Assembly: GCA_942493105.1 (NCBI GenBank) | Contig: OW818668.1 | Span: forward strand, 870,001 to 902,000 | Length of the DNA: 32,000 nt | Reading direction: 5' to 3' | DNA from: an uncultured Erysipelotrichaceae bacterium | Lineage (GTDB): Bacteria > Bacillota_I > Bacilli_A > Erysipelotrichales > Erysipelotrichaceae | Shown: one piece after another, positions 2 through 19,269 of the stretch | Layout of the letters: every line of letters starts with the position of its first letter | Position numbering within the stretch: the stretch's first letter is position 1 | Notes under the pieces: generated by a model | What the model was told of the DNA's origin: nothing | The model's input: the letters and a program-made list of their open reading frames with translations, nothing else | Databases searched by the model: none | Program-made: the position numbers and the translations under genes

Positions 2-631
2 CGAACCTTAAGAGAACTAAATACAGGATGGATCCAATTTATCCCTATTCTTATTAAAAATAGCGATGGAACTCTGGCTAGCGATTCGGTAGATGCCAAA
101 GCTTATGGAGAATTTCTTAAAGTGATTTTCGAAGAATGGATCCATCATGATTTAGGTGTGGTAGATGTTCAGATCTTTGCGGAAACAGCCATAATGTGGG
201 CTGGTGGATCTGCCAGTGTATGTTGGCTCGCACCGACTTGTGGCCGTGTTATGGTAGTTGAACGTAATGGGAACGTCTATTCTTGCGATCATTATGTATC
301 ATCACAATATTACCTTGGAAATATTGAAAATTCATCTTTAGCTGACTTGGTTGATTCTCCATTTCAGAAACAATTCGGTCAAAATAAACGAGAACACATT
401 GCACAAAAATGTTTATCATGTCCATATCTTAAAGTCTGTAATGGAGGATGTCCTAAAGATAGGATCGATCACGGAGATCTAAAAGGTTTAAATATTTTAT
501 GTGAAGGACTATATGCCTTTCATGAGCATGCTGAAAAACCTTTGAAAGAACTGATGAGACTTAGAATGCAAGGTTTATCCCCGCAAGAAATTATGAAACA
601 ACTAAGACTCAAGTTTCCTAAAAGCACTTAA
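2..631 (+). CDS. Anaerobic sulfatase-maturating enzyme (radical SAM/SPASM family), C-terminal part; the 5' end lies upstream of the window
   Basis: The frame is open from nt 2 (RTLRELNTGWIQF...), so the M at 122 in the ORF track is internal. SPASM-like Cys motifs are present: CWLAPTC, SCDHY, CLSCPYLKVCNGGCPKDR. The sequence aligns by eye with the C-terminus of the full-length paralog at 652-1737. Confidence 0.75.
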   Translation, partial: RTLRELNTGWIQFIPILIKNSDGTLASDSVDAKAYGEFLKVIFEEWIHHDLGVVDVQIFAETAIMWAGGSASVCWLAPTCGRVMVVERNGNVYSCDHYVSSQYYLGNIENSSLADLVDSPFQKQFGQNKREHIAQKCLSCPYLKVCNGGCPKDRIDHGDLKGLNILCEGLYAFHEHAEKPLKELMRLRMQGLSPQEIMKQLRLKFPKST

Positions 632-653
632 AAAGTCATCCTAGATGACTTTT
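631..653. terminator. Bidirectional stem-loop between the convergent anSME genes
   Basis: AAAAGTCATC-cta-GATGACTTTT is a perfect 10-bp inverted repeat. It overlaps both stop codons and has A/T runs on both sides. Confidence 0.6.
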
Positions 654-1737
654 ATTTTCTGTATAGTGTCTTTATTTTGGGCAATGCATAATTCAAGAAA
701 TCTTGATAGCCACACATCTTCTCATCAAAATAGGTCACATTGAGTCTTTTACAATTCCCATTACAGATCGATTTAAATTGACATGAGTTACACAAAGGAC
801 TCATTCTTTTGGGTTCATTTATAAATTTTACAGATATTTCTCGATGTCGTAATTCCATAATAGAATCTGTATTGATGTTGCCAACTTTATATTGATCTAG
901 TACAAAGAAATCGCATGGATAAACAGAACCATCAGCTTCAATGACAAACTGTGGTGTACAAAAACCCAGCATTCCACATTGTTGGGGATATTCCCCAACA
1001 AACATAGGGATCACATTATCAAACAAGGTAACACTAAGATAATCCCCTTTTATATAATCTGTATACCATAAGTCAAAGAATGACTTATAGAATGAAGCAA
1101 AAAGCTCTGGAGTTAGGGCATATTTACTGTCTTTTTGATCCAAGTCCGGTAGACAAGGTATCAACTGCACATAGTCAAATTTTTGCTTCTTATAGAAAGC
1201 ATAGAGTTCTTTAGGATGCTTGGCTAGGATGCTGGTCAATACAGTTAAGATATTAAAATCAACTTTATGGCTTCTTAACAAATCGACAGTCTTCATGACG
1301 GAATCATAGGTTCCCAATTGATTCGCATTCTTTCTAAGAAAATCATGATTGGCTTGATAACCATCTAGGGATAACCCAACTAAAAATTGGTGTTGGGATA
1401 AAAATTGAGCCCATGTTTCATCAAGTTGTGAGCCGTTGGTTTGAAGGGCATAATGTATCACTTGGGTTGGTTGTTTAAACTGATCGACAGATTCAACAAA
1501 TGCTTTGAAATAATCCAAACCAGCTAAAGTAGGTTCTCCACCTTGAAAGGCAAAAGTAACATCTTCAACTTGTGGATTTTCTGTTGCCTTTTTGATTAGA
1601 TTTCGCATCGTATCAAAAGTCATAATGCCTGTTGATTTAACTTCTCTATGGTTGCTGACATCTGCATAAAAACAATACACGCAGCGGTAGTTACATAAAG
1701 ATGAAGCTGGTTTGATCAACATACTAAGACTGGCCAT
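652..1737 (-). CDS. Anaerobic sulfatase-maturating enzyme (radical SAM + SPASM), full length
   Basis: The CNYRCVYC (C-x3-C-x2-C) radical SAM motif is at aa 15-22. A GGEPTL SAM-binding motif is present. The C-terminus carries SPASM cysteines (CGMLGFC, PCDFF, CNSCQFKSICNGNCKR). RBS GGAGGT precedes the ATG. Confidence 0.85.
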   Translation of the reverse strand: MASLSMLIKPASSLCNYRCVYCFYADVSNHREVKSTGIMTFDTMRNLIKKATENPQVEDVTFAFQGGEPTLAGLDYFKAFVESVDQFKQPTQVIHYALQTNGSQLDETWAQFLSQHQFLVGLSLDGYQANHDFLRKNANQLGTYDSVMKTVDLLRSHKVDFNILTVLTSILAKHPKELYAFYKKQKFDYVQLIPCLPDLDQKDSKYALTPELFASFYKSFFDLWYTDYIKGDYLSVTLFDNVIPMFVGEYPQQCGMLGFCTPQFVIEADGSVYPCDFFVLDQYKVGNINTDSIMELRHREISVKFINEPKRMSPLCNSCQFKSICNGNCKRLNVTYFDEKMCGYQDFLNYALPKIKTLYRK

Positions 1738-1795
1738 TTGACCTCCGTCACATTGTGATGATGAAGTTATTATATTCTATTTGAATGGTTATGAA

Positions 1796-1817
1796 AAGAC
1801 AGCTTATTAGCTGTCTT
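1796..1817 (-). terminator. Rho-independent terminator after the GntR gene
   Basis: AAGACAGCT-tatt-AGCTGTCTT is a 9-bp stem. On the minus strand it is followed by TTTTC, immediately after the stop codon at 1817-1819. Confidence 0.6.
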
Positions 1818-2545: not shown

Positions 2546-2609
2546 CGGTTTACCCCTTATCTACCCCGTATTGATAGGGTCCTAAGCCTATATTTACATC
2601 TTCACCGAT

Positions 2610-2618: not shown

Positions 2619-2650
2619 TAACAAATATCTGTAAAATTCACGAAAAATAC

Positions 2651-2699: not shown

Positions 2700-2727
2700 G
2701 GATGAAATATCCTAGGGAGAAAAACAA

Positions 2728-4482
2728 ATGACCTATTTAAACGGTGTATCTAATTTCGAAAAATACCCATCCACCAAGATTCTTGGACATGACTCTGATG
2801 TGTTTGCAGGTTATGATCAAATCGCAGCAACACTCAAAAAATCCATCGATAAGCATGATTTTGTCTTGACTGTTGAAACGTATGTTGGGGTCGACGAAAG
2901 CGTACTAGAAGCCTTGGTTCAGCGTTTAAAACCAAGTACCGTTATCCGCAGCATCGATATTTTCTATCCAAGCGATGTCATGCAGAAAATGATGGCTCGA
3001 TATATTACAGATGATCGTGTTTATGGGATTGCTTATACAGGTGAATGGTCTGATTTCGTTGATCCAGAACGTCTTGAAAAAGCTAAAGCTCAGGTTCAAC
3101 AAGCCAAAGGCTTGACCTTGATTTTTGGGGTAGGTGCTTCCTACATCTCAAAGGGAGATTGTTTGGTGTATGCAGATATGGCCATTTGGGAATTACAGAT
3201 GCGTTATAGAAATGGAACTCCTAACTTCAATGCGACCAATGTCGTTGAAGAACAGATCCGTAAATTCAAGCGTGGTTATTTTATTGATTGGCGCTTATCC
3301 AATCGTCAAAAAGCTTCCCTATTTGAAGAGTTTGATTTCTATCTTGATACCGTGTGGAATGATAAACCCGCTATGCTGACTCGTAATGCTTTTGAGACTG
3401 GTTTAAAAGAAATGTTGCACCAACCTTTTAGAACCATTCCTTTCTTTGATGAAGGTCTGTGGGGTGGTCAATGGATGAAAGAAGTCTGTGATGTGGAAGA
3501 TAAATCACGCATCAATTATGCGTGGAGTTATAACTTATTATTCCAGGAAAATGAAGTCAATCTTCAATTCGGAAATACACGGGTCAATATTCCTGGGTAT
3601 ACTGTTATGCTTCGTTATCCTAAGTTATTGATCGGTGAAAAAGGATTCTCTCGTTTTGGAGCTGAATACCCAATTCGTTATGACTTCTTGGATACCATGG
3701 AAGGTGGTTATCTCTCGCTTCAAGTCCATCCGGATACCCAATATTATCAGCAAAACTTTGGGATGCCTTTTACTCAAGATGAAAGTTACTATTTCTTGGA
3801 TTGCGGTCCAACCGATACCTTTATGCATCTTGGATTAAAGACTGGCGTTAAAAAAGAAGATGTTGAACGCGATCTTAAACGGGCATCACGTGGTGAAATA
3901 GATTTCCCTGCAGATAAATATACCAATAAGATCTATGTTAAAAAACATGATCATCTGCATATTCCTGCAGGTACCATTCACTGTGCTGGACCAAATACGA
4001 TGGTTCTTGAGATTTCATCTGCACCTTGTATCTTTACATTCAAGCTATGGGATTGGGGCAGAGTTGGTATGGATGGTATTCCTCGTCCAACCCACATCGA
4101 TCGTGGTATGAAAGTCATCCAATGGGATAAAGGAACAGAGTGGATCAATGAAACCTGTGCTTTCCCAGCGTATAAAGTAGATGGCGGAGAAGGTTGGGTC
4201 GAAGAAAAAACTGGACTTAATGATTTGGAATTTATCGAAACCCATCGTGTTACCACCTCTGTTAAAGTTCACAGGTCAACCAAAAACGAAACCAATGCGT
4301 TGCATCTTGTCGATGGTCGTGAAGCTTTGATTGAATCTCCAACAGGTCAATTTAAACCTTTCATTATCCACTTTGCGGAATCTGTTTGTATTCCTGCAGG
4401 GATCAGTGAGTATACATTCCGTCCTTACGGCGAAAGCGAAAATAAAGAAGTCAGTTTAATCATTGGATATGTTAGGTATTAG
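2728..4482 (+). CDS. Long (584 aa) class I phosphomannose-isomerase-like cupin protein with an unassigned ~240-aa N-terminal region
   Basis: The C-terminal half carries PMI type I hallmarks that parallel the ManA-like ORF at 9421: GLWGGQWM (cf. KIWGG), LSLQVHPD (cf. LSIQVHP), ESYYF, HIPAGTIHCAG (cf. IPSGTIHAIG). RBS GGGAGA is present. Confidence 0.6.
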   Translation: MTYLNGVSNFEKYPSTKILGHDSDVFAGYDQIAATLKKSIDKHDFVLTVETYVGVDESVLEALVQRLKPSTVIRSIDIFYPSDVMQKMMARYITDDRVYGIAYTGEWSDFVDPERLEKAKAQVQQAKGLTLIFGVGASYISKGDCLVYADMAIWELQMRYRNGTPNFNATNVVEEQIRKFKRGYFIDWRLSNRQKASLFEEFDFYLDTVWNDKPAMLTRNAFETGLKEMLHQPFRTIPFFDEGLWGGQWMKEVCDVEDKSRINYAWSYNLLFQENEVNLQFGNTRVNIPGYTVMLRYPKLLIGEKGFSRFGAEYPIRYDFLDTMEGGYLSLQVHPDTQYYQQNFGMPFTQDESYYFLDCGPTDTFMHLGLKTGVKKEDVERDLKRASRGEIDFPADKYTNKIYVKKHDHLHIPAGTIHCAGPNTMVLEISSAPCIFTFKLWDWGRVGMDGIPRPTHIDRGMKVIQWDKGTEWINETCAFPAYKVDGGEGWVEEKTGLNDLEFIETHRVTTSVKVHRSTKNETNALHLVDGREALIESPTGQFKPFIIHFAESVCIPAGISEYTFRPYGESENKEVSLIIGYVRY

Positions 4483-4494
4483 GCAGGTACTAAC

Positions 4495-5250
4495 ATGAAA
4501 TTTATTGTTTGTGAGGACCATTCACACTTAGCTGAAGTTGTCTCTGAACTGATCATCCAACAGGTTACCCGTAAACCGGATTCTGTTCTTTGTATTCCTA
4601 CCGGTGGCACACCGATCCCAGCTTATCAGCGTTTAGTCGAAAAAGCCAAGAACATTGACTTTAGTCGTGTATCATTTTTTAACTTAGATGAATACTTAGG
4701 GTTACCACCCACTCATGAACAAAGTTATCAAAGTTTTCTAAAGACTCATGTTTTAAATCCATTAGGCATCTCCTTAGTTCAACAGCATCTTTTAAGCTCT
4801 GATAGTCCAGATCCTATATTAGAGTGTTTACGCAATGATGACCTGATCGACCAATTCGGTGGTTTCGATATGATGTTGGATGGGATTGGTGAAAATGGCC
4901 ATATCGCATTCAATGAACCCAGTGATCATTTTGAGGCAAGAACCCATATTGCTGAAATAAGTACTTCTACCAGACTTGCTAATGCACGATTTTTCAATTC
5001 GCTTGATGAAGTTCCTACTCAAGCAATTTCTGTTGGTTTCGAAGACATCATAAAAGCTAAACATCTTGTTTTAATGGCTACTGGTCCTAAAAAAGCACTG
5101 GTGATTGAAAGACTGGTTTCTGAATCGACAATAAGCTGCGACTTCCCCATTTCTTTCTTACGTATGCATCCTAATGTTACAATTGTGTTAGATAAAGCAG
5201 CTTGTGGTAGAAGTGTTGATGTATTGATCAACAAAGGACAATCATTATGA
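4495..5250 (+). CDS. nagB: Glucosamine-6-phosphate deaminase/isomerase family protein (NagB-like)
   Basis: Motifs PTGGTP, FNLDEY, DGIGENGHIAFNEP and ANARFF are present. The length and order of conserved blocks match Bacillus-type NagB. Confidence 0.8.
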   Translation: MKFIVCEDHSHLAEVVSELIIQQVTRKPDSVLCIPTGGTPIPAYQRLVEKAKNIDFSRVSFFNLDEYLGLPPTHEQSYQSFLKTHVLNPLGISLVQQHLLSSDSPDPILECLRNDDLIDQFGGFDMMLDGIGENGHIAFNEPSDHFEARTHIAEISTSTRLANARFFNSLDEVPTQAISVGFEDIIKAKHLVLMATGPKKALVIERLVSESTISCDFPISFLRMHPNVTIVLDKAACGRSVDVLINKGQSL

Positions 5251-6071
5251 AAAAAGCCCCGGCCTTTAAAGGATTATTAAATTACATCTTACTTGGTTCA
5301 GTTATTGGCCTATTGATTGCTGTCCTAAAATATTTATTTGCTTGGAATGCCCAATTGACCAATATCATTTTGTTCTCAACTGTATCTTTAATCCTTATAG
5401 GGTTCCTATCAAAATTCTTTTATGACTATTTTAAAATGAAAAGGATGTATACATCCTATGAAAAGTATCTTACCAATTATGAAATGGATAAATACATCAC
5501 AGCAGTTCAAGATGCCTTAAGTAAAACAAAGACAAAAACGTATCAAGACATCCATCGCTTAAGTCTATCTTTAGGTTATGGTTACATTGGAGAGTATCAA
5601 AAAGCAATTGATGAACTGGCACTGACATATGGCAGTTCAAAAACCATGACACCTACCGCAATTCTCAGTATCGTCAACATCATCAATTACTATATTCAGC
5701 TGGATGATTTTAAAGCCGTTAAGAAGATTCAACAACGTGCAGAGAAGATCATCACAGCTTATCAAAACGATCCTAAATATGGCATCTTGATTGAAATCAA
5801 CAACATCCAAGTGGCTCTAAAAGAAAAGAATCTAGAGAAAGCTTATGCTTCTCTTCAACAAGCCGAATTATATCGGGATCTCATAAAAGCATCGAATTAT
5901 GAATTGGATATCGTCAAAGCTAAGTATTTAATCGCCAGTGGTAAAGCAGATGAAGCACGAGAATTATTGGAACCTTTAGAAGCATTGGTTCTACCTCCAG
6001 TGTTTAAAAAATCAGTAAAGCAACTTCTAGATCTTATCCATAAAAAACCTCGTCTTCAGGAGAAAACTTAA
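5247..6071 (+). CDS. Hypothetical membrane protein: two N-terminal TM helices plus a helical, TPR-like soluble region
   Basis: Hydrophobic segments LLNYILLGSVIGLLIAVL and IILFSTVSLILIGFL are followed by an amphipathic helical-repeat-like sequence. The start overlaps the nagB stop (ATGA). The stop abuts the nanE start (TAAATG). No family was recognised. Confidence 0.5.
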   Translation: MKKAPAFKGLLNYILLGSVIGLLIAVLKYLFAWNAQLTNIILFSTVSLILIGFLSKFFYDYFKMKRMYTSYEKYLTNYEMDKYITAVQDALSKTKTKTYQDIHRLSLSLGYGYIGEYQKAIDELALTYGSSKTMTPTAILSIVNIINYYIQLDDFKAVKKIQQRAEKIITAYQNDPKYGILIEINNIQVALKEKNLEKAYASLQQAELYRDLIKASNYELDIVKAKYLIASGKADEARELLEPLEALVLPPVFKKSVKQLLDLIHKKPRLQEKT

Positions 6072-7529
6072 ATGAACGAGGAGAATAAATTTAAAAAAAT
6101 CTTTCAGCCAGGAATCATCGTATCCTGTCAAGCGCATAAAGGAGAACCTTTATATCGCGAAGAAGGAGGTGTCATGAGCTTGATGGCTCTAGCTGCCCAA
6201 CAAGCAGGTGCGGTTGGGATCAGAGCCAATGATATTTTAGATTGTTCTCAAATTTTAGAAACAGTAAGTATCCCAGTCTTAGGCATATTGAAGAAACATT
6301 ATCCCGATTCAGACATCTACATAACCCCAACCATGGAAGAAGTAGATGCGTTAATGAACATCAAAGGCATGAAAGCCATCGCGGTTGCGATGACAGATAC
6401 AATTAGGCCTAATGGATTAACCAATGAAATGTTTATCAAACAGATACGAGAAAAGTATCCTGATGTCGCCATCATGGCTGATATTGCGAATATTGATGAA
6501 GGCATCAAGGCGTGGAAATTAGGGGTAGATTGTGTTGCTACAACACTTTATGGGCATTTGCCTCACGAGACAAATAAACCCAGTATTGATTTGGTAAGAC
6601 AATTGGTTGATGCTGTGGATATTCCGGTCGTATGTGAAGGCGGGATCTATCTAGAGCAGCATATCACTGAAATTATTAAAGCAGGTGCTTATTGTTGTGT
6701 GGTTGGCGGATCGATCACACGACCCAAAGAAATCACCAAACGATATGTAGAAGCCTATAAATCTTGGTTGCTCAAACAACCCATCATTCACCAAATTGAT
6801 AGACAACCAAATCGTTTCAGATCTGTGTTCAAACCAGGGATCATCGTATCTTGCCAAGCTCAAAAAGGTGAACCCATGTATCGTATAGAAGGTGGGATCA
6901 TGAGTTTGATGGCCTTAGCTGCTCAACAAGCCGGAGCCATTGGTATCAGAGCCAATACAGTCATCGATTGCTTGCAGATCAGTGAAACAGTAAGTATTCC
7001 GGTCCTAGGCATCTATAAAAATCATTATCCAGATTCACCTATATACATCACCGCAACCATGAGTGAAGTAGATGCCTTGATGTCGATCAAAGGGATGAAA
7101 GCCATTGCCGTTGAATTGACGGATGCTAAAAGACCTTTTGGTCAGAGTCATGAAGACTTCATCCATCAAATCAGATCTAAATATCCAGATGTTGCCATTA
7201 TGGCAGATATCGCAACCTATGAAGAAGGCATCCATGCTTGGAAGTTGGGAGTTGATTGTGTTGCTACGACGATGTATGGTTATACCACATACGATCCAAA
7301 TACACCAAAACCAAACATTGAGTTGGTTAGGCACCTCGTTAAAGCAATTGATGTTCCTGTGGTCTGTGAAGGCGGTATCTATCTAGAACAGCATGTGGTC
7401 GACATATTTGAAGCAGGAGCGTATTGCTGTGTCATAGGCGGGTCAATCACTCGTCCTAAAGAGATTACAACGAAATTTATAAAAGCGTATGAAAACGCTA
7501 AACATAAAGGGAGAAACAATGAACATTAA
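6072..7529 (+). CDS. nanE: Tandem-fused double N-acetylmannosamine-6-phosphate 2-epimerase (NanE-NanE)
   Basis: Two full NanE-like modules sit in one ORF (aa ~7-232 and ~249-474). Each carries PGIIVSCQA.KGEP.Y, GIRAN, DCVATT.YG and VVCEGGI...GGSITRP blocks. RBS AGGAGA is present. Confidence 0.8.
   Translation: MNEENKFKKIFQPGIIVSCQAHKGEPLYREEGGVMSLMALAAQQAGAVGIRANDILDCSQILETVSIPVLGILKKHYPDSDIYITPTMEEVDALMNIKGMKAIAVAMTDTIRPNGLTNEMFIKQIREKYPDVAIMADIANIDEGIKAWKLGVDCVATTLYGHLPHETNKPSIDLVRQLVDAVDIPVVCEGGIYLEQHITEIIKAGAYCCVVGGSITRPKEITKRYVEAYKSWLLKQPIIHQIDRQPNRFRSVFKPGIIVSCQAQKGEPMYRIEGGIMSLMALAAQQAGAIGIRANTVIDCLQISETVSIPVLGIYKNHYPDSPIYITATMSEVDALMSIKGMKAIAVELTDAKRPFGQSHEDFIHQIRSKYPDVAIMADIATYEEGIHAWKLGVDCVATTMYGYTTYDPNTPKPNIELVRHLVKAIDVPVVCEGGIYLEQHVVDIFEAGAYCCVIGGSITRPKEITTKFIKAYENAKHKGRNNEH
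6090..7493 (+). repeat. Internal tandem duplication (~680 nt unit; copy 1 6090-6767, copy 2 6816-7493) inside the NanE-NanE ORF
   Basis: The two halves align end to end at protein level. By eye, roughly two-thirds to three-quarters of positions are identical, with one 2-aa indel near YGH/YGY. They are also recognisably similar at DNA level (ccaggaatcatcgtatcctgtcaagc vs ccagggatcatcgtatcttgccaagc). Confidence 0.85.
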
Positions 7530-8643: not shown

Positions 8644-8671
8644 ACAAGGTAATAAATAAAGGAGAACCCTT

Positions 8672-11173: not shown

Positions 11174-11181
11174 AAATTCAC

Positions 11182-11211
11182 TTGACAAGTGCTCATGAAG
11201 ACAAGTAGAAT
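11182..11211 (+). promoter_or_regulatory. Sigma-70-type promoter of the PTS/sulfatase operon
   Basis: TTGACA (11182-11187), 18-nt spacer, TAGAAT (11206-11211). It lies in the 88-nt gap between the HAD stop and the IIB start. Confidence 0.6.
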
Positions 11212-11224
11212 AAGAGTAGATTAG

Positions 11225-11240
11225 ACATGTATATACAACA
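11225..11240. promoter_or_regulatory. Third copy (variant) of the 16-bp operator, just downstream of the PTS promoter -10
   Basis: The plus strand reads ACATGTATATACAACA and the reverse complement reads TGTTGTATATACATGT. The variant matches the 2684-2699 copy at 12 of 16 positions. Its core TGTATATACA is a perfect palindrome. Confidence 0.5.
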
Positions 11241-11261
11241 AAATAGGAAAGGTAAAAAAAC

Positions 11262-11765
11262 ATGCCCGTAGTTCTTTCAAGAATTGATGATCGTCTCGTT
11301 CACGGTCAGGTCATTGGAAGTTGGATTCGTAGTTATAATGTTAATGTCATTGTCATCGTAGATGATGCTTGTGCAGTGGATAAGACACAATTAGAAATCT
11401 TTAAGTTGACAACGCCTCCGGGGATTCAGTTGATTGCTCAAACGATTGCTGGTTTTGTTGACAAGTACCAAAAAGGTGTTTTTGAGAAATACAGAGTCAT
11501 GGTCATTACCAGAGACACAGCAGCAATTACAGCCATTGCTAAAGCTGGAATCAAATTCCCAATCGACTTTATCAATGTTGGGGGCATGCGCTTTAAAGAA
11601 GGCCGTATACAAGTTACAAATTCAGTTAGTGTTACTCCTTCTGAAATAGAGGATTTCATATTCTTAAATGACTTTGGCTATAAACTTGAGTACCGTCAAG
11701 TTTTATCGCATGAATCAGTCAATCTGGTTCCAATCATTAAATCACAACAAAAGAAAGGGGTTTAA
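11262..11765 (+). CDS. PTS mannose/fructose/sorbose-family EIIB component
   Basis: The N-terminal LSRIDDRLVHGQV block contains the phospho-His. The ~165-aa size fits. Confidence 0.85.
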   Translation: MPVVLSRIDDRLVHGQVIGSWIRSYNVNVIVIVDDACAVDKTQLEIFKLTTPPGIQLIAQTIAGFVDKYQKGVFEKYRVMVITRDTAAITAIAKAGIKFPIDFINVGGMRFKEGRIQVTNSVSVTPSEIEDFIFLNDFGYKLEYRQVLSHESVNLVPIIKSQQKKGV

Positions 11766-11774
11766 AGAGAGCTT

Positions 11775-12548
11775 ATGACAGAAGCGATTATTATTACAAT
11801 CATTTCCATCTTATTGACATGGGAATCAGCCGCTATCGGTCAGTTCGGCTTAGCTAATCCACTCGTATCCGGTACGATCATTGGTTTAGCATTAGGCGAT
11901 GTAACTACCGCTATCGAAGTTGCAGTTCCGTTGCAGTTGATTTTTATGGGGGCCGTTGGGATTGGTGCATCGACACCACCTGATTCATTGCTAGGTACGA
12001 TTTTGGGTACCGTCTTGGCAATTAAAGGTATTCCTGTTGAAACCGCTTTAGCTATTGCCGTACCAGTTGCATTCGTTGCCGTATCGTTGAATACCATCAT
12101 TAGAACGATCAACTCCTTAACGATGCACTACATGGACAGATTGATTGACAGAGAAAACTATAGAATGTTTAAAATTGTCCATCTGACGTTCAGCCAAGCA
12201 TTGTATGCTATCCGTAATATCTTGGTTGTCTTCCCAGCCGTATACTATGGCGCAGAAGCTGTTCAAGGTGTTCTAGCTGTTATTCCACCGTTTATTCTAA
12301 CTGGCTTTAATGCAGCTGGGAAAATTCTACCTGCTTTAGGGTTTGGGATGTTGATCCAAATGATCGGTGTTCCTCATCTGATGCCGTTCTTATTCATCGG
12401 TTTCGTTCTAGCTTCATATCTGCCTATTACCCTAATCGGTGTTTCCGTTTTGGGTATCTGTTTCGCATTGTTGTATGACTTCTTTGTCAATAAATTAAAA
12501 GGCAAAGGCAGTGGTGAGAGCGATTTAGACTCTCTCCTGAATGACTAG
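11775..12548 (+). CDS. PTS mannose-family EIIC component
   Basis: A polytopic membrane protein of ~257 aa, positioned between IIB and IID. Its Gly/Ala-rich TM segments are typical of IIC-Man. Confidence 0.8.
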   Translation: MTEAIIITIISILLTWESAAIGQFGLANPLVSGTIIGLALGDVTTAIEVAVPLQLIFMGAVGIGASTPPDSLLGTILGTVLAIKGIPVETALAIAVPVAFVAVSLNTIIRTINSLTMHYMDRLIDRENYRMFKIVHLTFSQALYAIRNILVVFPAVYYGAEAVQGVLAVIPPFILTGFNAAGKILPALGFGMLIQMIGVPHLMPFLFIGFVLASYLPITLIGVSVLGICFALLYDFFVNKLKGKGSGESDLDSLLND

Positions 12549-12560
12549 GAGGCCACGAAA

Positions 12561-13373
12561 ATGACAGAATCAAGAGCTATTACTAAGAAAGATTTGATGG
12601 GTGTATTCTACAGATCATTTACATTACAAGCATCATGGAATTACGAACGTATGCAGGCTGGCGGTTGGTTATTCATCGTATTGCCAGTATTGCAAAAACT
12701 CTATAAAGGCAATCCGGAAGGCTTGAAAAAAGCTGCAGCCCGTAACCTTGAATTCTTTAATACTCAACCATATTTAGCATCACCAATCTTGGGTGTTGCG
12801 TTAGCTTTGGAAGAACGCGTTGCTTTAAACGGTGATGTTGACGCAAGTGCTGTCTCCGCCATTAAGATGGGGATGATGGGACCGTTTGCCGGTTTAGGCG
12901 ATTCCATGTTCTGGTTTACCATTCGTCCTATTTGTTTAGGGATTGGGATCTCGCTCGCTGCTGGCGGCAATATCTTAGGTCCTATCGTATTCTTGCTGAT
13001 TTATAACGTATTCCATCTTGGTACACGCTATTTTGGTACAATGGAATCCTATAAGATGGGTCTTAACTTCATGTCTACTTTGGCTAAAGGCGGAGTCGTT
13101 CAACGTATTTCCGAATTGGCTGGTGTTCTTGGTTTGACCGTATTGGGCGTTATGATTGCTCAAAACGTTTCTGTTCCGTTCATCTTTAAGATCGGTACAG
13201 GAGATGCTGCTAAGAGCTTCTTAGACATCGCAAAATCCATTATGCCTAACATTTTAGGTCTTGGCGTTACCTTCTTGTTCTCATACTTCCTGAAGAAAGG
13301 TATTACACCAGTTCGTATTCTGTACGTCGTATTGGCAGTATGTCTGTTGTTTGCCTACTTCAAGATTTTCTAG
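12561..13373 (+). CDS. PTS mannose-family EIID component
   Basis: The N-terminal block (FYRSFTLQASWNYERMQAGGW, then FFNTQPY...P..G) is characteristic of IID-Man. RBS TAGGAGG is present. Confidence 0.85.
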   Translation: MTESRAITKKDLMGVFYRSFTLQASWNYERMQAGGWLFIVLPVLQKLYKGNPEGLKKAAARNLEFFNTQPYLASPILGVALALEERVALNGDVDASAVSAIKMGMMGPFAGLGDSMFWFTIRPICLGIGISLAAGGNILGPIVFLLIYNVFHLGTRYFGTMESYKMGLNFMSTLAKGGVVQRISELAGVLGLTVLGVMIAQNVSVPFIFKIGTGDAAKSFLDIAKSIMPNILGLGVTFLFSYFLKKGITPVRILYVVLAVCLLFAYFKIF

Positions 13374-13382
13374 GATCTCATT

Positions 13383-14669
13383 ATGTTACTGGGATCAAGC
13401 AAAAAAATCAACATCACCCCACCCATCGGATTACGGATGTCAGGCTTTGAAGAACGTAACCATGGTGCTGAAGGGATCTTGAATCAACTGTTTGCCAACG
13501 TATTGGTTCTAGGTGACGGTAAAACGAAAGTAGCCATCGTGACCTTGGATTTGAGTGGCGTCGACAAAGTACTCACCAAAGCAGTTAGAGATGCTGTCAG
13601 TCAAAAGACAGATATTCCCTATGATGCGATTATGTTGATTGCTTCACACACCCATTCGGGTCCTGAAGCTTGGCGCACCGGAGATATGGGAAACATTTCT
13701 CGTCCTGTCGATTTGACAGCGGATGAAATCGCCTACAGAAATGTATTGCCTGGATTGATCGCCAATGGCATCGTTTGGGCAAATAAAGAGTTAGAACCGG
13801 TTAAACTTGGAGTTAAGCAGAGTGAACTGCTTGGTCTTGGTAGCAATCGAATTGATGCGTCTCGGTATGTCGATAATACCGTTACCGTATTTAGAGTAGA
13901 TCGCTTGACCGGAGAACCTTTAGCTTTATTGACACAGTATACCTGTCATCCAACCATCCTTAACTTTACCAACTACCTCTATTCCGGAGATTACATCTCC
14001 TTCTATCAAGAGACAGTTGAGAAAGTCTTCCCAGGCTGTGTTGCGATGTTTGCTCAAGGCTGTGCCGGAAATGTCAGCACACGTCACAATCGTAAGAGTT
14101 TCGGTGTAACCGAAGCACGTCGTATGGGAGTGTTATTGGCAGGCGAAGTGATTAAAGATGCAAGCTTGGTCGATACGAAGGATGATCTAACATTATCTGC
14201 CGCAATCGAACCTCTTAGACTCAAAATTCGCGACTTCGAATCTGATGAAGAATGCGAACGTAGAATCAAAGTGGTCCAAGACAAGATCGATGAATTAAAA
14301 GCAAACAATGCACCTGAAAATATCCAACGTACAGCTTACGTTGAAATGCAAGGTGCTACCCGTTATTACCGACTCAAAAAGCGCGTCGACATCAAAAAAG
14401 TTGTCGTTGAAATGCAAAGAATCAGTATCGGGGAGTGGAACATCATATCAACCCCAGCAGAAACCTTTGGTGAAATCGGAAGAAACATACGTAATCTTGA
14501 CCGCAGTAAGAAAACAGTGGTCACAGGTTACACCAATGCTTCGGTCGGCTATATCCCAACCCGCGAAACTTATCGCAATCCTGTAGGGTACGAGGTCGGT
14601 GTTGCACTTGTCAGTGAAGATTCAGAAGACCGTTTGGTCAAAACTGCAAAAAAATTATTAACGAAGTAA
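13383..14669 (+). CDS. Neutral/alkaline-ceramidase-N-terminal-domain-like hydrolase (function unknown)
   Basis: The N-terminal ITPPIGLRMSGF and the ASHTHSGPE block resemble the Zn-binding core of neutral ceramidase superfamily proteins. There is no signal peptide. The gene lies between the PTS IID and IIA genes. Confidence 0.5.
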   Translation: MLLGSSKKINITPPIGLRMSGFEERNHGAEGILNQLFANVLVLGDGKTKVAIVTLDLSGVDKVLTKAVRDAVSQKTDIPYDAIMLIASHTHSGPEAWRTGDMGNISRPVDLTADEIAYRNVLPGLIANGIVWANKELEPVKLGVKQSELLGLGSNRIDASRYVDNTVTVFRVDRLTGEPLALLTQYTCHPTILNFTNYLYSGDYISFYQETVEKVFPGCVAMFAQGCAGNVSTRHNRKSFGVTEARRMGVLLAGEVIKDASLVDTKDDLTLSAAIEPLRLKIRDFESDEECERRIKVVQDKIDELKANNAPENIQRTAYVEMQGATRYYRLKKRVDIKKVVVEMQRISIGEWNIISTPAETFGEIGRNIRNLDRSKKTVVTGYTNASVGYIPTRETYRNPVGYEVGVALVSEDSEDRLVKTAKKLLTK

Positions 14670-14672
14670 TGG

Positions 14673-14705
14673 GAATGGGGAATTGAAAAATTCCCCATTC
14701 TTTCT
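14673..14705 (+). terminator. Intra-operon stem-loop (terminator- or attenuator-like) between the ceramidase-like gene and IIA
   Basis: GAATGGGGAATT-gaaa-AATTCCCCATTC is a perfect 12-bp stem. It is followed by TTTCT, and the IIA RBS AAGGAGG lies 8 nt further on. Confidence 0.5.
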
Positions 14706-14721
14706 ATAAAAGGAGGAACTT

Positions 14722-15174
14722 ATGAAAGGTATCATATTAGCAAGTCATGGTCCAATGGCCAAAGCAGTTTTAGAATCAGTTAAATTATTCGTCGGTGAAG
14801 TAGAAAATATTTTAGCACTCGCACTTGATGGTGACGAAAGTCCTGAATCTTTTAAATTAAGATTAAAGGATGCGATCGTTCAACTTGATCAGCACGATGG
14901 TATCTTATTGTTAACAGACATACCTGGTGGTACACCTAGTAATATTGGATTGATGATTGCCAGTGATACCCCAGATTTAGTTGTCGTTTCGGGACTCAAC
15001 ATGATTCTACTAATGGAAGCTATTTTGACCAGAGAGTTTACACCAAGTGTTGAACAATGGGTCGAAAGCAGCATACAAAGCGGACAAACCAGTATCCAAG
15101 ATTTGACATCAAGATTGAGAAATGAAAATACGTCAGGAACACCATCTGAACTTGATGAATTATTAGACGAATAA
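14722..15174 (+). CDS. PTS mannose-family EIIA component
   Basis: The N-terminal MKGIILASHGPMAKAVLES block contains the His phosphorylation site. The ~150-aa size fits. Confidence 0.8.
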   Translation: MKGIILASHGPMAKAVLESVKLFVGEVENILALALDGDESPESFKLRLKDAIVQLDQHDGILLLTDIPGGTPSNIGLMIASDTPDLVVVSGLNMILLMEAILTREFTPSVEQWVESSIQSGQTSIQDLTSRLRNENTSGTPSELDELLDE

Positions 15175-15178
15175 TATT

Positions 15179-16936
15179 ATGAAAGCCATCATGTTGATGT
15201 TTGATTCTTTGAATCGTCGTCTACTTGAGCCTTATGGATCACTAGAATCCGAAACTCCGAATTTTACACGACTGGCCCAAAAATGTCTTGTTTTTGATCG
15301 TTGTTATGTTGGAAGTATGCCTTGTATTCCTGCTCGTAAGGAACTACATACAGGAAGACATAACTTTTTGCACAGAAGCTGGGGACCTCTAGAACCCTAT
15401 GATGATTCTGTTCCGGAATTATTAAAGAAGAACGGAATACATACCCATTTGGTTACCGATCATAAACACTATTGGCGTGATGGTGGGGCAACTTACCACA
15501 ATCGTTACTCTACTTATGAGTTCATACGAGGTCAAGCTGGTGATTTATGGATTGGTCAAGTCAATCAACCTGAAGTCAAAGTCAAAATCATGGATGATCC
15601 AGACCGATTTAAAAGACGTCAATTGAGCCGTTCCCAAGATCTCATCAATCGCAATTATCATAATCAACATCATACCCATCAACTTGTTCAAACTTTTGAT
15701 AAAGGTTTCGAATTTTTGGATATGAATAAAGGATCTGATCAATGGTTTTTACAGATAGAATGCTTTGATCCTCATGAACCCTATTTTGTTCAGGAAGAGT
15801 ATCGAAGAAAATTTCACCTCTCAGATGAGTTTGATGGTTGGGCTCCTTTGATCATAAGATCTCCTGAAGAAGGTGATCCTGATCAAATCAGACAGCACTA
15901 TAAAGCACTCTTAGCGATGGTCGATGATCAGATTGGACGTTTTATCGATAAGATGGATGAACTGAAGTTGTGGGATGATGTATTGGTCATCCTCAATACA
16001 GATCATGGTTGTTTCTTAGGTGAACATGATTGGTGGTATATGGGAGTTATGCCTTTATACAATGAAATGGCTAACATTCCTATGATGATCCATTATCCAC
16101 AAAGCAAGTTACAATCTCAACATTCAAAAGAAATCGTTCAAAATATAGATATCCCTGTTACTTTATTGGATTACTTTAAAATCTCAAAGCCAGAATCTAT
16201 GAAAGGCATTAGTATTTTACCTGTCTTTGAACAAAAAGAACGAACAAAATCTGAAGCGTTTTTTGGCTACTTTGGCGGTGATTTAAATGTAACAGATGGT
16301 CGTTATGTCTATATGCGAGCGCCTTTGACGAAGAGCTATGATCATGTTTATGAGTATACTTTAACTCCGACCCACATCAATAAATTCTTTTCTGTTGAAG
16401 AACTCAAACGTATGGAGATGGTTGGTCCATTACCTTTTACAAAGGATTGCCCAGTATTAAAAATCAAAGCTACTGAAGATCCTCAACCCAATGCACATCG
16501 ATACCTTCATCGTTTGTTTGATTTAGAAAAAGATCCTCAACAAAACAATCCGATTGATGATCCGTCGCTTGAACTCAAATTCTGTAAGTTGTTGAAACGT
16601 TTGTTGGATGAACATGATGCCCCTAATGAGATCTATACCAGATATGGACTCTCTGATGAGATGACAGTGACTTCCTTATTAAGACAACGTGAAACACATT
16701 ACGAAGAATATGAAGAACTATTGAGTGTTTTAAGGTTCGCTGATCAAAGTGCGCTTGAGAAGACGATCGTACTTTATAATGCGATTAAGTTAGATCAAAG
16801 AGAGGCTTTTTTATTGATGGCTAAGCAGCGTCAAATTGATACGTCATGGTTACAAACATTATTGGAGACATTTATTGTTTCTGATCAATGGTTAAGTACT
16901 CAATACCAAATGGATCTGTATGGGAAGGTAAAATAA
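15179..16936 (+). CDS. Cys-type (formylglycine) sulfatase, paralog 1, no signal peptide
   Basis: The C-x-P-x-R core is within SMPCIPARKELHTGRHNF (Cys49, nt 15323-15325). The N-terminal MFDSLN block starts the sulfatase fold at residue ~7. TDHG..LGEH is a late catalytic block. Confidence 0.8.
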   Translation: MKAIMLMFDSLNRRLLEPYGSLESETPNFTRLAQKCLVFDRCYVGSMPCIPARKELHTGRHNFLHRSWGPLEPYDDSVPELLKKNGIHTHLVTDHKHYWRDGGATYHNRYSTYEFIRGQAGDLWIGQVNQPEVKVKIMDDPDRFKRRQLSRSQDLINRNYHNQHHTHQLVQTFDKGFEFLDMNKGSDQWFLQIECFDPHEPYFVQEEYRRKFHLSDEFDGWAPLIIRSPEEGDPDQIRQHYKALLAMVDDQIGRFIDKMDELKLWDDVLVILNTDHGCFLGEHDWWYMGVMPLYNEMANIPMMIHYPQSKLQSQHSKEIVQNIDIPVTLLDYFKISKPESMKGISILPVFEQKERTKSEAFFGYFGGDLNVTDGRYVYMRAPLTKSYDHVYEYTLTPTHINKFFSVEELKRMEMVGPLPFTKDCPVLKIKATEDPQPNAHRYLHRLFDLEKDPQQNNPIDDPSLELKFCKLLKRLLDEHDAPNEIYTRYGLSDEMTVTSLLRQRETHYEEYEELLSVLRFADQSALEKTIVLYNAIKLDQREAFLLMAKQRQIDTSWLQTLLETFIVSDQWLSTQYQMDLYGKVK

Positions 16937-16945
16937 GGAGACTCT

Positions 16946-18706
16946 ATGAAAGCAGTCATGATGATGTTTGATTCTTTGAATCGAAGGTTTCTAGAACCTT
17001 ATGGGTCACAAGAAAATCTGACGCCAAACTTTAAACGACTAAGCGAACACTCCGTCAGTTTTGATCAATTTTATGTGGGTAGTTTGCCTTGTATGCCTGC
17101 AAGAAGAGAAATGCATACAGGACGGCACAACTTCTTACATCGAGGTTGGGGTCCTATAGAACCTTTTGATGATTCTGCCCCCGAAATTTTAAAAAACAAT
17201 GGCATTCATACGCACTTGGTTACCGACCATAAACACTATTGGCGCGATGGTGGATCGACTTATCATAATCGATATCGGACCTATGAGTTTATCCGTGGCC
17301 AAGAAGGTGATACATGGATCGGTCAAGTCAATAAACCTGACTTGGGTGAATTGACAGGTGAAAGCACAGAACGTAAATCAAGAAAGAGAGTAAGTCGTAC
17401 CCAAGATTTGATCAATCGCCAGTATATGGATACTGTATCATCACATATGATGATCAGGACCGTTGAGAAAGGCCTGGAGTTTTTAGAGATGAATAAAGAT
17501 GCAGATCAATGGTTTCTACAAATCGAGTGTTTTGATCCGCATGAACCATATTATGTCCCACAGAAATATTTGGATAAATTAGGGATCACTGAGAAATTTG
17601 ATGGTTGGCCAGAATACTACATCAAAACAGAATCAGAATCAAAAACAGCCCTTATTCAGGGATACTATAAGGCATTGCTTATGATGTGTGATGAGTATCT
17701 TGGGAAGGTCCTCGATCACTTTGATGAACATAAGCTGTGGGATGATACGATGCTGATTGTTTGCACAGACCATGGTTTTCTATTGGGTGAACATGAATGG
17801 TGGGGGAAAAGCTATATGCCAGTCTTTAATGAGCTAGCCAATACACCTTTCTTTTTATGGGATCCGCGTTTAGGCTTAAAGAATCAACATTCAACTCGAT
17901 TGGCTCAATTGATTGATGTTCCAGCAACTTTACTAGATTACTTTAAATGTCCAAAACCTATAGATATGCATGGGGTTTCTTTAAGTCAAGTTTTAGAAAC
18001 AGACAGTAATGCCAGAGATCAAGTGCTATTTGGCTATTTTGGATGTAATGTCAATCTTTCGGATGGGAATTATGTGTATATGAGATCTGCGACACATCGC
18101 AATGGTCAAGGTTTATATGAATACACTTTAATGCCAATGCGAATCAATCGCAGATTTACACCTGAAGAGTTAAGAGAAACCATTTTAAATGCACCACTTA
18201 GCTTTACAAAAGGATGCTCTATTCTTAAGATTCCTTCACACGATTTTATCGCAGAAAATCTGAATCGCTTCGGTAATCGTTTGTATGACTTGATAAATGA
18301 TCCACATCAAACGCAACCTCTAGACAACAATGAACTAGAAGCTTATTATGCCAATCTCATGCGACAAAGAATGATTGAAGAGGATGCGAATGAAGAGATT
18401 CTAGATTATTATGGCTTACTTAATCCACACACCTCAGAATCTATAAAAGCTGAAAAAGATGAAAAAAAGCATCGATTGAACGATGCTGACCATGGCTTGG
18501 TTTTTTCTGATTTTGCGACTCAAGAGGGCTACTTTAGTTTTATGGAATGGCTTTCTGCCGATCAGCGACCTTCTGCTCTCAACTACTATAAAGCAATGCA
18601 TATCATCACCTCTGATGTATTAGTCCAAGGGATTGAAAGTATTGTAGAGCCACAACGTTTATCTGAAGCAATGTATAGAGTCAACCTTCATATGAGAATC
18701 AACTAA
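16946..18706 (+). CDS. Cys-type (formylglycine) sulfatase, paralog 2, no signal peptide
   Basis: SLPCMPARREMHTGRHNF is present (Cys49, nt 17090-17092). The protein is collinear with paralog 1. The N-terminal ~130 aa are very similar and the C-terminal ~100 aa are divergent. RBS AAGGAGA is present. Confidence 0.8.
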   Translation: MKAVMMMFDSLNRRFLEPYGSQENLTPNFKRLSEHSVSFDQFYVGSLPCMPARREMHTGRHNFLHRGWGPIEPFDDSAPEILKNNGIHTHLVTDHKHYWRDGGSTYHNRYRTYEFIRGQEGDTWIGQVNKPDLGELTGESTERKSRKRVSRTQDLINRQYMDTVSSHMMIRTVEKGLEFLEMNKDADQWFLQIECFDPHEPYYVPQKYLDKLGITEKFDGWPEYYIKTESESKTALIQGYYKALLMMCDEYLGKVLDHFDEHKLWDDTMLIVCTDHGFLLGEHEWWGKSYMPVFNELANTPFFLWDPRLGLKNQHSTRLAQLIDVPATLLDYFKCPKPIDMHGVSLSQVLETDSNARDQVLFGYFGCNVNLSDGNYVYMRSATHRNGQGLYEYTLMPMRINRRFTPEELRETILNAPLSFTKGCSILKIPSHDFIAENLNRFGNRLYDLINDPHQTQPLDNNELEAYYANLMRQRMIEEDANEEILDYYGLLNPHTSESIKAEKDEKKHRLNDADHGLVFSDFATQEGYFSFMEWLSADQRPSALNYYKAMHIITSDVLVQGIESIVEPQRLSEAMYRVNLHMRIN

Positions 18707-19206
18707 GATTTTTTCTCGGACCTATAGACTCTAAAATAACCAAAGACGATGGTTGTTAGTGCTGCTATCGGATAAATCAAGAAATCTGAAGTACCATAAA
18801 CTTTACTATAACCAAGATAAAGAAGTGTTAAGGCAAGTGCCACATATAATCCCATATGGAGAATTCTAAATTTAGGATTTTGAAGTTTGGTCAGTCGAGT
18901 AGGTGCTATGGTGAAGTTTCTGATTTTAGCATATTTAGCCAACATAAATTTACGGTAATATAACTCTACTGAAGTCAGTAGAACCACCGCAATACCACCC
19001 AAAATATAGTTGTTAAACTTTGTCACATAATATGTAAAAAAGACGATAATGATAACAACGAGGTATCTATTTCTCATGAAAAAGAAAAGTTGTAAATCTT
19101 TTTTAGGAATGACATAAGCCATATTCTTTTTGGGAACTGGATAGATATATTTTCCGTTTTTTTCTTGAATGACGCCGACAGTATTAAGTGTGTTATTGGA
19201 TATCAT
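18703..19206 (-). CDS. Hypothetical small membrane protein (about 4 TM helices)
   Basis: Hydrophobic segments are present: YLVVIIIVFFTYYV, ILGGIAVVLLTSV, LHMGLYVALALTLLYLGY, LIYPIAALTTIVFGYF. RBS GAGGTGA is present. Its stop codon overlaps the sulfatase-2 stop codon. No family was recognised. Confidence 0.55.
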   Translation of the reverse strand: MISNNTLNTVGVIQEKNGKYIYPVPKKNMAYVIPKKDLQLFFFMRNRYLVVIIIVFFTYYVTKFNNYILGGIAVVLLTSVELYYRKFMLAKYAKIRNFTIAPTRLTKLQNPKFRILHMGLYVALALTLLYLGYSKVYGTSDFLIYPIAALTTIVFGYFRVYRSEKKS

Positions 19207-19253
19207 AGAATCACCTCATCAATATTATAACTTATGAAAGTAGCGATATCTAC

Positions 19254-19269
19254 TGTTATATATACAACT
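19254..19269 (-). promoter_or_regulatory. Fourth copy of the 16-bp operator, upstream of the 18703-19206 membrane-protein gene
   Basis: The minus strand reads AGTTGTATATATAACA. It matches the 2684-2699 copy at 15 of 16 positions. The 14-mer GTTGTATATATAAC is identical, and the upstream flank AAGTT is shared. A TATAAT on the minus strand lies between it and the gene start. Confidence 0.55.

Follow-up and report, generated by a model that had tools for sequence, protein, structure and literature searches.

How might a gut-type Firmicute use a sulfated amino sugar if its sulfatases carry no export signal? The question is raised by a gene cluster at positions 2–19269 of a 32,000-nt stretch of DNA from an uncultured Erysipelotrichaceae bacterium (GCA_942493105.1, contig OW818668.1, positions 870,001 to 902,000; hereafter the window). 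An earlier note, made from the sequence alone, proposed that a sulfated amino sugar is imported and phosphorylated by a mannose-family PTS and only then desulfated in the cytoplasm. We found that the gene set described in that note is real, with some corrections, and that its interpretation is supported only in part: comparative data favor cytoplasmic sulfatases working downstream of a PTS, while the substrate and the order of steps are inferred.

We first examined gene content by Pfam and NCBIfam profile searches. The window opens with the 3′ part of an anSME-like radical-SAM/SPASM maturase gene (2–631, +), which is cut by the window edge and encodes the C-terminal 209 aa (SPASM PF13186; TIGR03942 anaerobic sulfatase maturase, 3.1e-57 over model positions 175–361). 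A complete anSME-like gene (652–1737, −; 361 aa) encodes Radical_SAM and SPASM domains and a CX3CX2C motif (CNYRCVYC, residues 15–22). Its scores of 347.7 bits for TIGR03942 (cut-off 349.45) and 365.9 bits for NF010321 (cut-off 441) make anSME the best-scoring family by far but fall just under the curated equivalog level, so that assignment at that level was left undecided. A GntR/HutC-type regulator gene follows (1817–2545, −; GntR PF00392 and UTRA PF07702).

Downstream lies a co-oriented block of 16 genes; 2728–18706 is the only co-oriented portion of the locus. Gaps within it range from −4 to 52 nt, except for an 88-nt gap before IIB that holds a promoter and an operator. The first gene (2728–4482, +) encodes a 584-aa PMI-like cupin with no Pfam or NCBIfam hit; residues 311–462 match the B. 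subtilis PMI (PDB 1qwr, E 4e-8), the N-terminal domain of about 300 aa has no family match, and a 62% identical ortholog is present in a sister locus without a sulfatase (L083). It is followed by a NagB-like deaminase/isomerase (4495–5250, +; PF01182), a 274-aa protein of unknown function with two N-terminal TM helices (5247–6071, +), a fused double NanE, or ManNAc-6-P 2-epimerase-like protein (6072–7529, +; PF04131 in two stretches, 347 bits), of which relatives carry a single copy, and a NagA-like amidohydrolase (7489–8643, +; PF01979). NanE scores 486 bits with NF002231, above its cut-off of 189, whereas the NagA-like and NagB-like proteins fall below NCBI's equivalog cut-offs (TIGR00221, 174 versus 225.65 bits; TIGR00502, 224.6 versus 236.9 bits); a canonical NagA/NagB/NanE funnel is therefore not certain. 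Next are a cupin-type glucose-6-phosphate isomerase homolog (8672–9424, +; PF06560, 4e-21), a 309-aa type I phosphomannose isomerase homolog (9421–10350, +; PF20511; TIGR00218, 92 bits, below the 116.2 cut-off) and a Cof-type HAD-IIB phosphatase (10331–11173, +; PF08282, 4e-44; TIGR00099, 136.3 bits against a cut-off of 137).

The mannose-family PTS is complete. IIB, IIC and IID occupy 11262–13373 (+; PF03830, PF03609 and PF03613), IIA lies at 14722–15174 (+; PF03610), and both phosphorylation histidines are kept, in RIDDRLVHGQ of IIB and in an SHG motif at residues 8–10 of IIA. Between IID and IIA we found a gene that the earlier note had missed (13383–14669, +), encoding a 428-aa neutral-ceramidase-like Zn amidase with no leader and no TM segment (PF04734, 1e-23; PDB 4wgk and 2zws). 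Only the N-terminal catalytic domain matches (residues 11–233), and NF041649 gives 23.8 against a cut-off of 1200, so this is not a full-length neutral ceramidase; the Zn-site motifs HTHSGP and CHP nevertheless appear to be kept. The note also missed the 274-aa gene and a gene for a 167-aa membrane protein (18703–19206, −) that has three TM segments and no family hit. Both are conserved in two related loci (L004 and L084) and in a related contig (P0008), the 167-aa gene next to the sulfatases. No RNA family reached the Rfam gathering score in the window.

The two sulfatase genes (15179–16936 and 16946–18706, both +) lie 4 and 9 nt behind IIA and encode proteins of 585 and 586 aa that are 48% identical to each other (PF00884, 2e-33 and 2.5e-29). 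Both are of the Cys type, with the CxPxR Cys at residue 49: C49-I-P-A-R53 in sulfatase 1 and C-M-P-A-R in sulfatase 2. C49, P51, R53, D9, K96, H97, H199, D275 and H276 are invariant across 57 sequences. An AF2 model of sulfatase 1 (pLDDT 84.4, pTM 0.88) retrieved only S1 sulfatases in a Foldseek search, at 19% identity or less; activity on a defined substrate was not assayed, and no SulfAtlas subfamily was assigned. Export signals had been named in advance as an observation that would overturn a cytoplasmic reading, and we found none. Only 4 and 3 in-frame codons lie upstream before a stop, the highest 19-residue hydropathy is below 1.0, and no TM segment was detected. Both proteins start 3 residues before the first core strand: residues 4–20 align to the first beta-strand of BT4656 at residues 32–48, which sits behind the N-terminal leader of that protein.

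We next asked whether the locus is under common control. A search for GTTGTATATAYA with up to 1 mismatch gave 6 matches at 4 sites (2652, 2685, 11228 and 19255), all intergenic, against 0.29 expected by chance. The sites fall in three promoter regions, not two as the note had it. Two copies (GTTGTATATATAAG, GTTGTATATATAAC; 2652–2698) lie in the divergent region between gntR and the 584-aa gene and flank a TATAAT at about 2676–2681. A further copy, GACATGTATATACA (11228–11239), follows an internal promoter (TTGACA-18-TAGAAT, 11 of 12) within 11182–11239, and is kept at the same place in L004 and L084. The last (GTTATATATACAAC, 19255–19268) is just upstream of the promoter-like site of the 167-aa gene. 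A strict 14-mer search in L004, L084 and L083 found nothing, but reading the promoters showed that the conserved core is ATGTATATACA. The operator is conserved in relatives whose sulfatase 1 is only 62–63% identical.

Gene-neighborhood comparison, which had been suggested beforehand as a test of PTS–sulfatase–anSME co-occurrence, gave strong support. The ~580-aa leaderless sulfatase family lies within 3 kb of a PTS permease in 70 of 79 species-level loci, and three unrelated PTS superfamilies are involved (63 Glc-type, 5 Lac-type and 2 Man-type), which points to a functional tie. The 9 exceptions are 8 actinomycetes and 1 Anaerolineaceae. An anSME lies within 6 kb in 46 loci, a TauE-type anion exporter in 7, and a GH1 or GH4 gene in 13; the two checked by Pfam are GH1 and GH4, families that include phospho-glycosidases. 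Of 174 homologs, 173 carry CxPxR at residues 42–51, which leaves no room for a leader. Carriers include Salmonella and Klebsiella, whereas in 5,426 complete E. coli genomes only the PTS IIC part of the Salmonella locus matched, at 69%, and no sulfatase was found, so E. coli is not a carrier. The closest named relative is an uncultured Erysipelotrichaceae MAG at 84% (L005). The whole operon is syntenic in L004, L084 and the P0008 contig, and the two sulfatases persist as separate ortholog lines. The P0008 variant adds TauE next to the anSME, consistent with sulfate release inside the cell; the window itself has no TauE-like exporter.

Based on these observations, the best explanation, to which we assign a probability of roughly 0.6, is a GntR/HutC-controlled regulon for uptake and intracellular breakdown of a sulfated N-acyl or N-substituted hexosamine. 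In this view the PTS imports the sugar and phosphorylates it, most likely at O-6; the two sulfatases, activated in the cytoplasm by the adjacent anSME-type maturases, remove sulfate groups from the PTS product or an early intermediate derived from it; the ceramidase-like amidase and/or the NagA-like enzyme removes the N-acyl group; and NanE, the NagB-like enzyme, the PMI-like cupins and the cupin PGI carry the sugar phosphate to fructose-6-phosphate. The amidase belongs to the conserved core and may be the real N-deacylase. No sugar kinase domain was detected in the locus, while NanE, NagA and NagB all act on 6-phosphates. Our data demonstrate the gene content, the absence of export signals, the shared operators and the family-wide linkage of the sulfatase to PTS genes; the identity of the sugar, the position of the sulfate, the order of the steps and the phosphorylated form as the true sulfatase substrate are inferred. 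The note's proposal of a 3-O-, 4-O- or N-sulfated hexosamine from mucin or GAG likewise remains an inference, and its argument for a free O-6 holds only for a monosaccharide.

Several features fit this model less well. No substrate is known for any member of the sulfatase family, and the nearest solved structures are too distant for regiospecificity to be read off. The top structural and sequence neighbors are S1_11 6-O-sulfatases, and a 6-O-sulfate would clash with O-6 phosphorylation of a monosaccharide. L083 runs the same core module with no sulfatase, and the P0008 variant lacks NanE, NagA and GPI; the base substrate may therefore be an unfamiliar amino sugar. The roles of the 584-aa protein, the HAD phosphatase and both membrane proteins are unexplained. 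A PFL gene at 25767–27992 was rejected as part of the pathway because it is only 30% identical over 193 aa to the glycyl radical enzyme inside the L083 operon. Tagatose-6-P kinase and tagatose-bisphosphate aldolase of the Aga/Gam GalNAc pathway are absent from the window, although they could be encoded elsewhere in the genome, and GalNAc-4-sulfate was judged unlikely on this basis. Glucosinolates were considered, without testing, as substrates for the Glc/Bgl-type loci and do not bear on the window.

Of the alternatives, the one that survives best, although we consider it unlikely, retains the general logic but changes the chemistry. The PTS substrate would be a disaccharide or glycoconjugate, or the sugar phosphate would first be dephosphorylated by the HAD enzyme, and the sulfatases would then act on a non-phosphorylated residue, possibly on a 6-O-sulfate. 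In favor of this are the S1_11 neighbors, the 13 loci with a GH1 or GH4 homolog, which implies glycoside substrates there, the reported import of hyaluronan disaccharides by Man-family PTSs (PMC9067506), and the presence in the conserved core of a HAD phosphatase and an amidase of unknown specificity. On the other hand, no recognizable glycoside hydrolase or sugar kinase domain was detected in the window locus, so a released free sugar would have no recognizable entry step, and identity to S1_11 enzymes is only 16–19%, too low to transfer specificity. A second and less likely alternative is that the enzymes hydrolyze another ester, such as a phosphate or phosphonate monoester or a non-sugar sulfate ester, or scavenge sulfur, their position next to PTS genes reflecting something other than a shared substrate. 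Phosphonate monoester hydrolases and choline sulfatases of the S1 fold appear among the matches, actinomycete homologs lie beside P450 and BTAD regulator genes with no PTS, and pneumococcal lysates showed no 4-methylumbelliferyl sulfate activity (PMC3283741). Against it stand the linkage of 70 of 79 loci to three PTS superfamilies, the position of the genes inside a sugar operon under a sugar-type repressor, and the recurrence of TauE-type exporters and anSMEs; moreover, a phosphatase acting on PTS products would be futile. Non-classical export followed by desulfation outside the cell before PTS uptake, as in the usual picture for glycan sulfatases, is very unlikely, since leaderless secretion exists in Firmicutes but nothing in the sequence suggests it here and the family is leaderless in both Gram-negatives and Gram-positives.

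A broader reading, which we hold only tentatively, is that the ~580-aa leaderless sulfatases form an uncharacterized S1 subfamily whose physiological substrates are PTS-generated sulfated sugar phosphates or sulfated phospho-glycosides. This route, not described biochemically, would have been recruited separately to Glc-, Lac- and Man-type PTSs in Salmonella, Klebsiella, Providencia, Vibrio, Bacillaceae and Erysipelotrichales, with the window as its amino-sugar version containing a ceramidase-like N-deacylase. Work on bacterial use of sulfated host and dietary glycans centers on exported Bacteroides sulfatases, and a 2023 specialist review of carbohydrate sulfatases never uses the word "cytoplasm" and uses "PTS" only for Pro/Ser/Thr mucin domains. 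If a widespread sulfatase family works on PTS-imported sugars inside the cell, it gives Firmicutes and Enterobacteria, several pathogens among them, their own route to sulfated sugars released by other microbes, it could explain the virulence-linked pneumococcal PTS-sulfatase island, and it defines sulfated sugar phosphates as a new substrate class for sulfatases. The family occurs in genetically tractable hosts (Salmonella enterica subsp. arizonae, Klebsiella and Serratia), so the idea can be tested directly.

Finally, we compared the locus with known systems. Prior characterization of homologous loci with a different function had been named as a possible refutation; full-text searches, which did not cover most subscription journals, found no characterized PTS-coupled desulfation pathway. 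The logic is nonetheless not wholly new, and the note, which knew of no characterized pathway of this kind, overstated its novelty. The accessory island SPH1922-SPH1930 of Streptococcus pneumoniae, described and mutated in 2012 with no substrate found (McAllister 2012, PMC3283741; Bidossi 2012, PMC3302838), combines a PTS, a sulfatase, a radical-SAM sulfatase maturase and a NanE-like protein in one regulated sugar island with no glycoside hydrolase described. It differs in having a Lac/chitobiose-type rather than Man-type PTS, a ROK rather than GntR regulator, TauE, one sulfatase instead of two, no NagA/NagB/PMI/PGI set and no ceramidase-like gene. A search with a Firmicute member of the family (the Beduini-type P0009) showed no Streptococcus protein among the top 120 hits, which leaves SPH1924 unplaced with respect to this subfamily. 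Erysipelotrichales relatives (L003, L006 and L008) do have a Lac-type EIIC, sulfatase and anSME, and L003 and L006 also have TauE.

Bifidobacterium breve UCC2003 is reported to use an intracellular sulfatase on GlcNAc-6-sulfate obtained by cross-feeding (Egan 2016, as summarized in PMC7326374), and thus also imports a sulfated amino sugar before desulfating it. The sugar there is 6-O-sulfated. The importer there is not a PTS, so the substrate would not be phosphorylated on entry. Man-family PTS loci for glycosaminoglycan disaccharides in streptococci, and chondroitin loci of Proteus vulgaris and Yersinia pseudotuberculosis (PMC9067506, PMC4641178), likewise deliver a host-glycan-derived amino sugar into a cytoplasmic pathway, and the Proteus and Yersinia loci also list a sulfatase. 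Those loci are built around a lyase, the unsaturated glucuronyl hydrolase GH88 and KduI/KduD or DhuI/DhuD, none of which appears among the Pfam hits for any window gene. The exported S1 carbohydrate sulfatases of Bacteroides act mostly in the periplasm, after outer-membrane uptake, so that the note's statement that such enzymes act before uptake is only partly right. One of these, BT4656 (S1_11, PDB 5g2v), shares the S1 formylglycine fold, the CxPxR motif and dependence on an anSME, but the sequence match is only E 1e-21 over part of the protein and structural identity is 16%. The Bacteroides enzymes carry an N-terminal leader, whereas the family described here has none and has, in the predicted model, an extra helical C-terminal region of about 120 residues.

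We first examined the gene content of bases 2–19269, where an ORF listing and profile searches confirmed the inventory drawn up in the earlier note from sequence alone; its observation is confirmed, with additions. On the minus strand lie a GntR+UTRA regulator gene (1817–2545) and a complete anSME-like radical-SAM/SPASM gene (652–1737), which scores 347.7 bits on TIGR03942, just under the cut-off of 349.45. Convergent with the latter, on the plus strand, is the 3′ end of a second anSME gene (2–631), which is cut by the window edge. From 2728 to 18706 sixteen genes run on the plus strand: a 584-aa PMI-like cupin (PDB 1qwr, E 4e-8), a NagB-like gene, a 274-aa two-TM protein, a fused double NanE, a NagA-like gene, a cupin GPI, a type I PMI, a Cof-type HAD phosphatase, PTS IIB, IIC and IID, a 428-aa neutral-ceramidase-like protein, PTS IIA, and two sulfatases of 585 and 586 aa. 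Gaps in this block range from -4 to 52 nt, apart from one of 88 nt before IIB. A 167-aa membrane protein gene (18703–19206) converges on the second sulfatase; the two genes overlap by 4 nt at their stop codons (18703–18706), with no terminator-like hairpin between them. The ceramidase-like gene and both membrane proteins had gone unmentioned in the earlier note. NanE (6072–7529) is a tandem fusion of two full domains, 485 aa in all, while the related loci L004 and L084 carry a single copy of 239–240 aa. No Rfam family was found in the window. Downstream, from 19344 to 31826, lie genes for a GNAT acetyltransferase, a P-type ATPase, a Crp/Fnr regulator, a YdjC-like deacetylase, an MFS transporter, a PNPOx-like protein, pyruvate formate-lyase (PFL) with its activase, a 399-aa membrane protein, an HD-domain protein, and DUF1028 with a peptidoglycan-binding domain, none of which carries the operator motif considered below.

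We next asked whether the sulfatases bear export signals, a finding that had been named in advance as one that would overturn the proposal of cytoplasmic desulfation, and found none. Only 4 and 3 in-frame codons, respectively, lie upstream of the two genes before a stop, the highest 19-residue hydropathy is below 1.0, and no TM segment or hydrophobic N-terminus occurs in any of the enzymes of the locus. Residues 4–20 align to the first core strand of BT4656, which in that exported enzyme lies behind the N-terminal leader. Both proteins carry C-x-P-x-R at residue 49. An AlphaFold2 model built on 57 homologs is confident (pLDDT 84.4, pTM 0.88), and a Foldseek search with it returned only S1 sulfatases, none above 19% identity. 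The two proteins are therefore genuine S1-fold enzymes, but far from every solved subfamily, and they also carry an extra helical C-terminal region.

A shared operator indicates a single regulon. The sequence GTTGTATATAYA, with up to one mismatch, gives six matches at four sites, all of them intergenic, against 0.29 expected by chance. Two of the sites flank the -10 element of the promoter of the 584-aa gene, one lies just downstream of the best sigma-70-like promoter in the region (TTGACA-18-TAGAAT), in front of IIB, and one lies at the promoter of the 167-aa membrane protein gene. The site in front of IIB is kept almost letter for letter (GACATGTATATACA) in relatives whose sulfatase 1 is only 62–63% identical.

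The main new evidence comes from comparative genomics. The sulfatase family is large: thousands of proteins match, and at least 581 places were found in contigs taken from one genome per species. Members are uniformly 575–592 aa in length. Of 174 homologs, 173 have CxPxR at residue 42–51, and the remaining one (P0048) has SxPxR, which may be a Ser-type variant or a sequencing error. The co-occurrence of sulfatase, PTS and anSME genes across genomes had been put forward as a test of the pathway, and we annotated 79 species-level loci with a phmmer panel, with Pfam spot checks. Seventy of these have a PTS permease within 3 kb of the sulfatase. In 63 loci, from Salmonella arizonae, Klebsiella, Providencia, Serratia, Vibrio, Paenibacillus, Gracilibacillus and others, the permease is a Glc/Scr/Bgl-type EIIBC(A), and typical partners are an aldose epimerase with RpiR, or GntR with an anSME, or GH1/GH4 homologs. 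In 5 loci, from Beduini, Coprobacillaceae and Amphibacillus, it is a Lac/Cel-type EIIC, typically accompanied by LacI, TauE and an anSME. In 2 loci, in addition to the window, it is of the Man type and is accompanied by amino-sugar enzymes; the hosts are Erysipelotrichaceae and an unclassified MAG (L004). The nine exceptions are eight actinomycetes and one Anaerolineaceae MAG; the one actinomycete locus that was checked by Pfam (L081) has P450 and BTAD neighbours. In the Salmonella locus (L001), an arylsulfate sulfotransferase gene of the AssT type (6122–7795) lies about 0.65 kb upstream of the EIICB gene of the EIICB-sulfatase-epimerase-RpiR cluster, between the mtl and selAB genes. In the Beduini-type loci L003 (4342–7452) and L008, two further sulfatases of about 495 aa, from a different subfamily, lie upstream of the Lac-type EIIC and next to a divergent RpiR gene, so that some loci stack three sulfatases around one PTS. 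Linkage of one enzyme family to three evolutionarily unrelated types of PTS permease is hard to explain unless the enzyme works on what the PTS delivers, and the TauE-type anion exporters found in several loci fit with sulfate release inside the cell.

In the Man-type version, the full operon is syntenic in L004, L084 and the contig carrying the homolog P0008. The two sulfatases persist as two ortholog lines, with 62–63% and 57–58% identity within a line and 44–49% across lines, which suggests two conserved specificities. Two variants are informative. The P0008 contig lacks NanE, the NagA-like gene and GPI; it keeps the 585-aa cupin, the NagB-like gene, the 309-aa PMI (PMI309), HAD, the PTS, the ceramidase-like gene, both sulfatases, GntR and anSME, and it adds TauE. 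The sister operon L083 (1–16080; NCBI GCA_964369955.1, contig CAYJFQ010000005.1) has no sulfatase. It holds a Man-PTS, two ceramidase-like genes, NanE, a cupin GPI, a 584-aa PMI-like cupin 62% identical to that of the window, a PMI309-like gene, GntR, a PHP-domain protein and a NagB-like gene, directly followed by a 745-aa glycyl radical enzyme and its activase. The radical enzyme is not PFL. It is only 30% identical over 193 aa to the PFL of the window, and thus a radical enzyme appears to be embedded in an amino-sugar operon. Based on these variants, the sulfatases look like an add-on to an amino-sugar module of unknown substrate.

The ceramidase-like amidase belongs to the core of that module. 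In the window it is a leaderless 428-aa homolog of the neutral ceramidase catalytic domain (13383–14669), situated between PTS IID and IIA, and its Zn-site motifs appear to be kept. The family is small, with 51 proteins at E<=1e-10 among 5.8 billion, and in every context examined it lies in a Man-PTS amino-sugar locus; a 66% identical homolog (P0153) is probably encoded in the same genome as the window. This protein may be the N-deacylase, and the NagA-like and NagB-like proteins score below NCBI equivalog cut-offs.

Taken together, the analysis itself establishes a complete PTS with its catalytic histidines in place, the absence from the locus of any recognisable sugar kinase or glycoside hydrolase, downstream enzymes of families that act on 6-phosphates, cytoplasmic sulfatases and maturases, and a shared repressor site. 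The pathway built on these features is our inference: the sugar would enter as a 6-phosphate still carrying its sulfate, be desulfated by the two paralogs, be N-deacylated, and then be isomerised or deaminated to fructose-6-phosphate. The interpretation offered in the earlier note is thus supported in part; its core logic is much strengthened by the family-wide linkage to PTS genes, while the substrate is unproven. Its argument that O-6 must be free holds only for a monosaccharide. The nearest solved relatives, though distant, are 6-O-sulfatases, and 13 sister loci include GH1 or GH4 homologs. A glycoside or disaccharide substrate, or dephosphorylation by the HAD enzyme before desulfation, therefore remains a live rival.

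Prior characterisation of homologous loci with a different function had also been named as a point on which the proposal could fail. Full-text literature searches, in a collection that omits most subscription journals, found no characterised PTS-coupled desulfation pathway, and a 2023 review of carbohydrate sulfatases contains neither the word 'cytoplasm' nor the transport PTS. Nonetheless, the claim of novelty must be tempered by two precedents, in pneumococcus and in bifidobacteria. The S. pneumoniae island SPH1922-1930 combines a Lac-type PTS, a NanE/ComA-like protein, a sulfatase, a maturase, TauE and a ROK repressor, where the window has a Man-type PTS, two sulfatases and a GntR+UTRA regulator; mutants of the island were attenuated, no arylsulfatase activity was seen, and the authors left open whether the PTS and the sulfatase work together (PMC3283741, PMC3302838). 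B. breve UCC2003 is reported to use an intracellular sulfatase for GlcNAc-6-sulfate (PMC7326374). Finally, the chondroitin loci of Proteus and Yersinia list a PTS together with a sulfatase (PMC9067506, PMC4641178).
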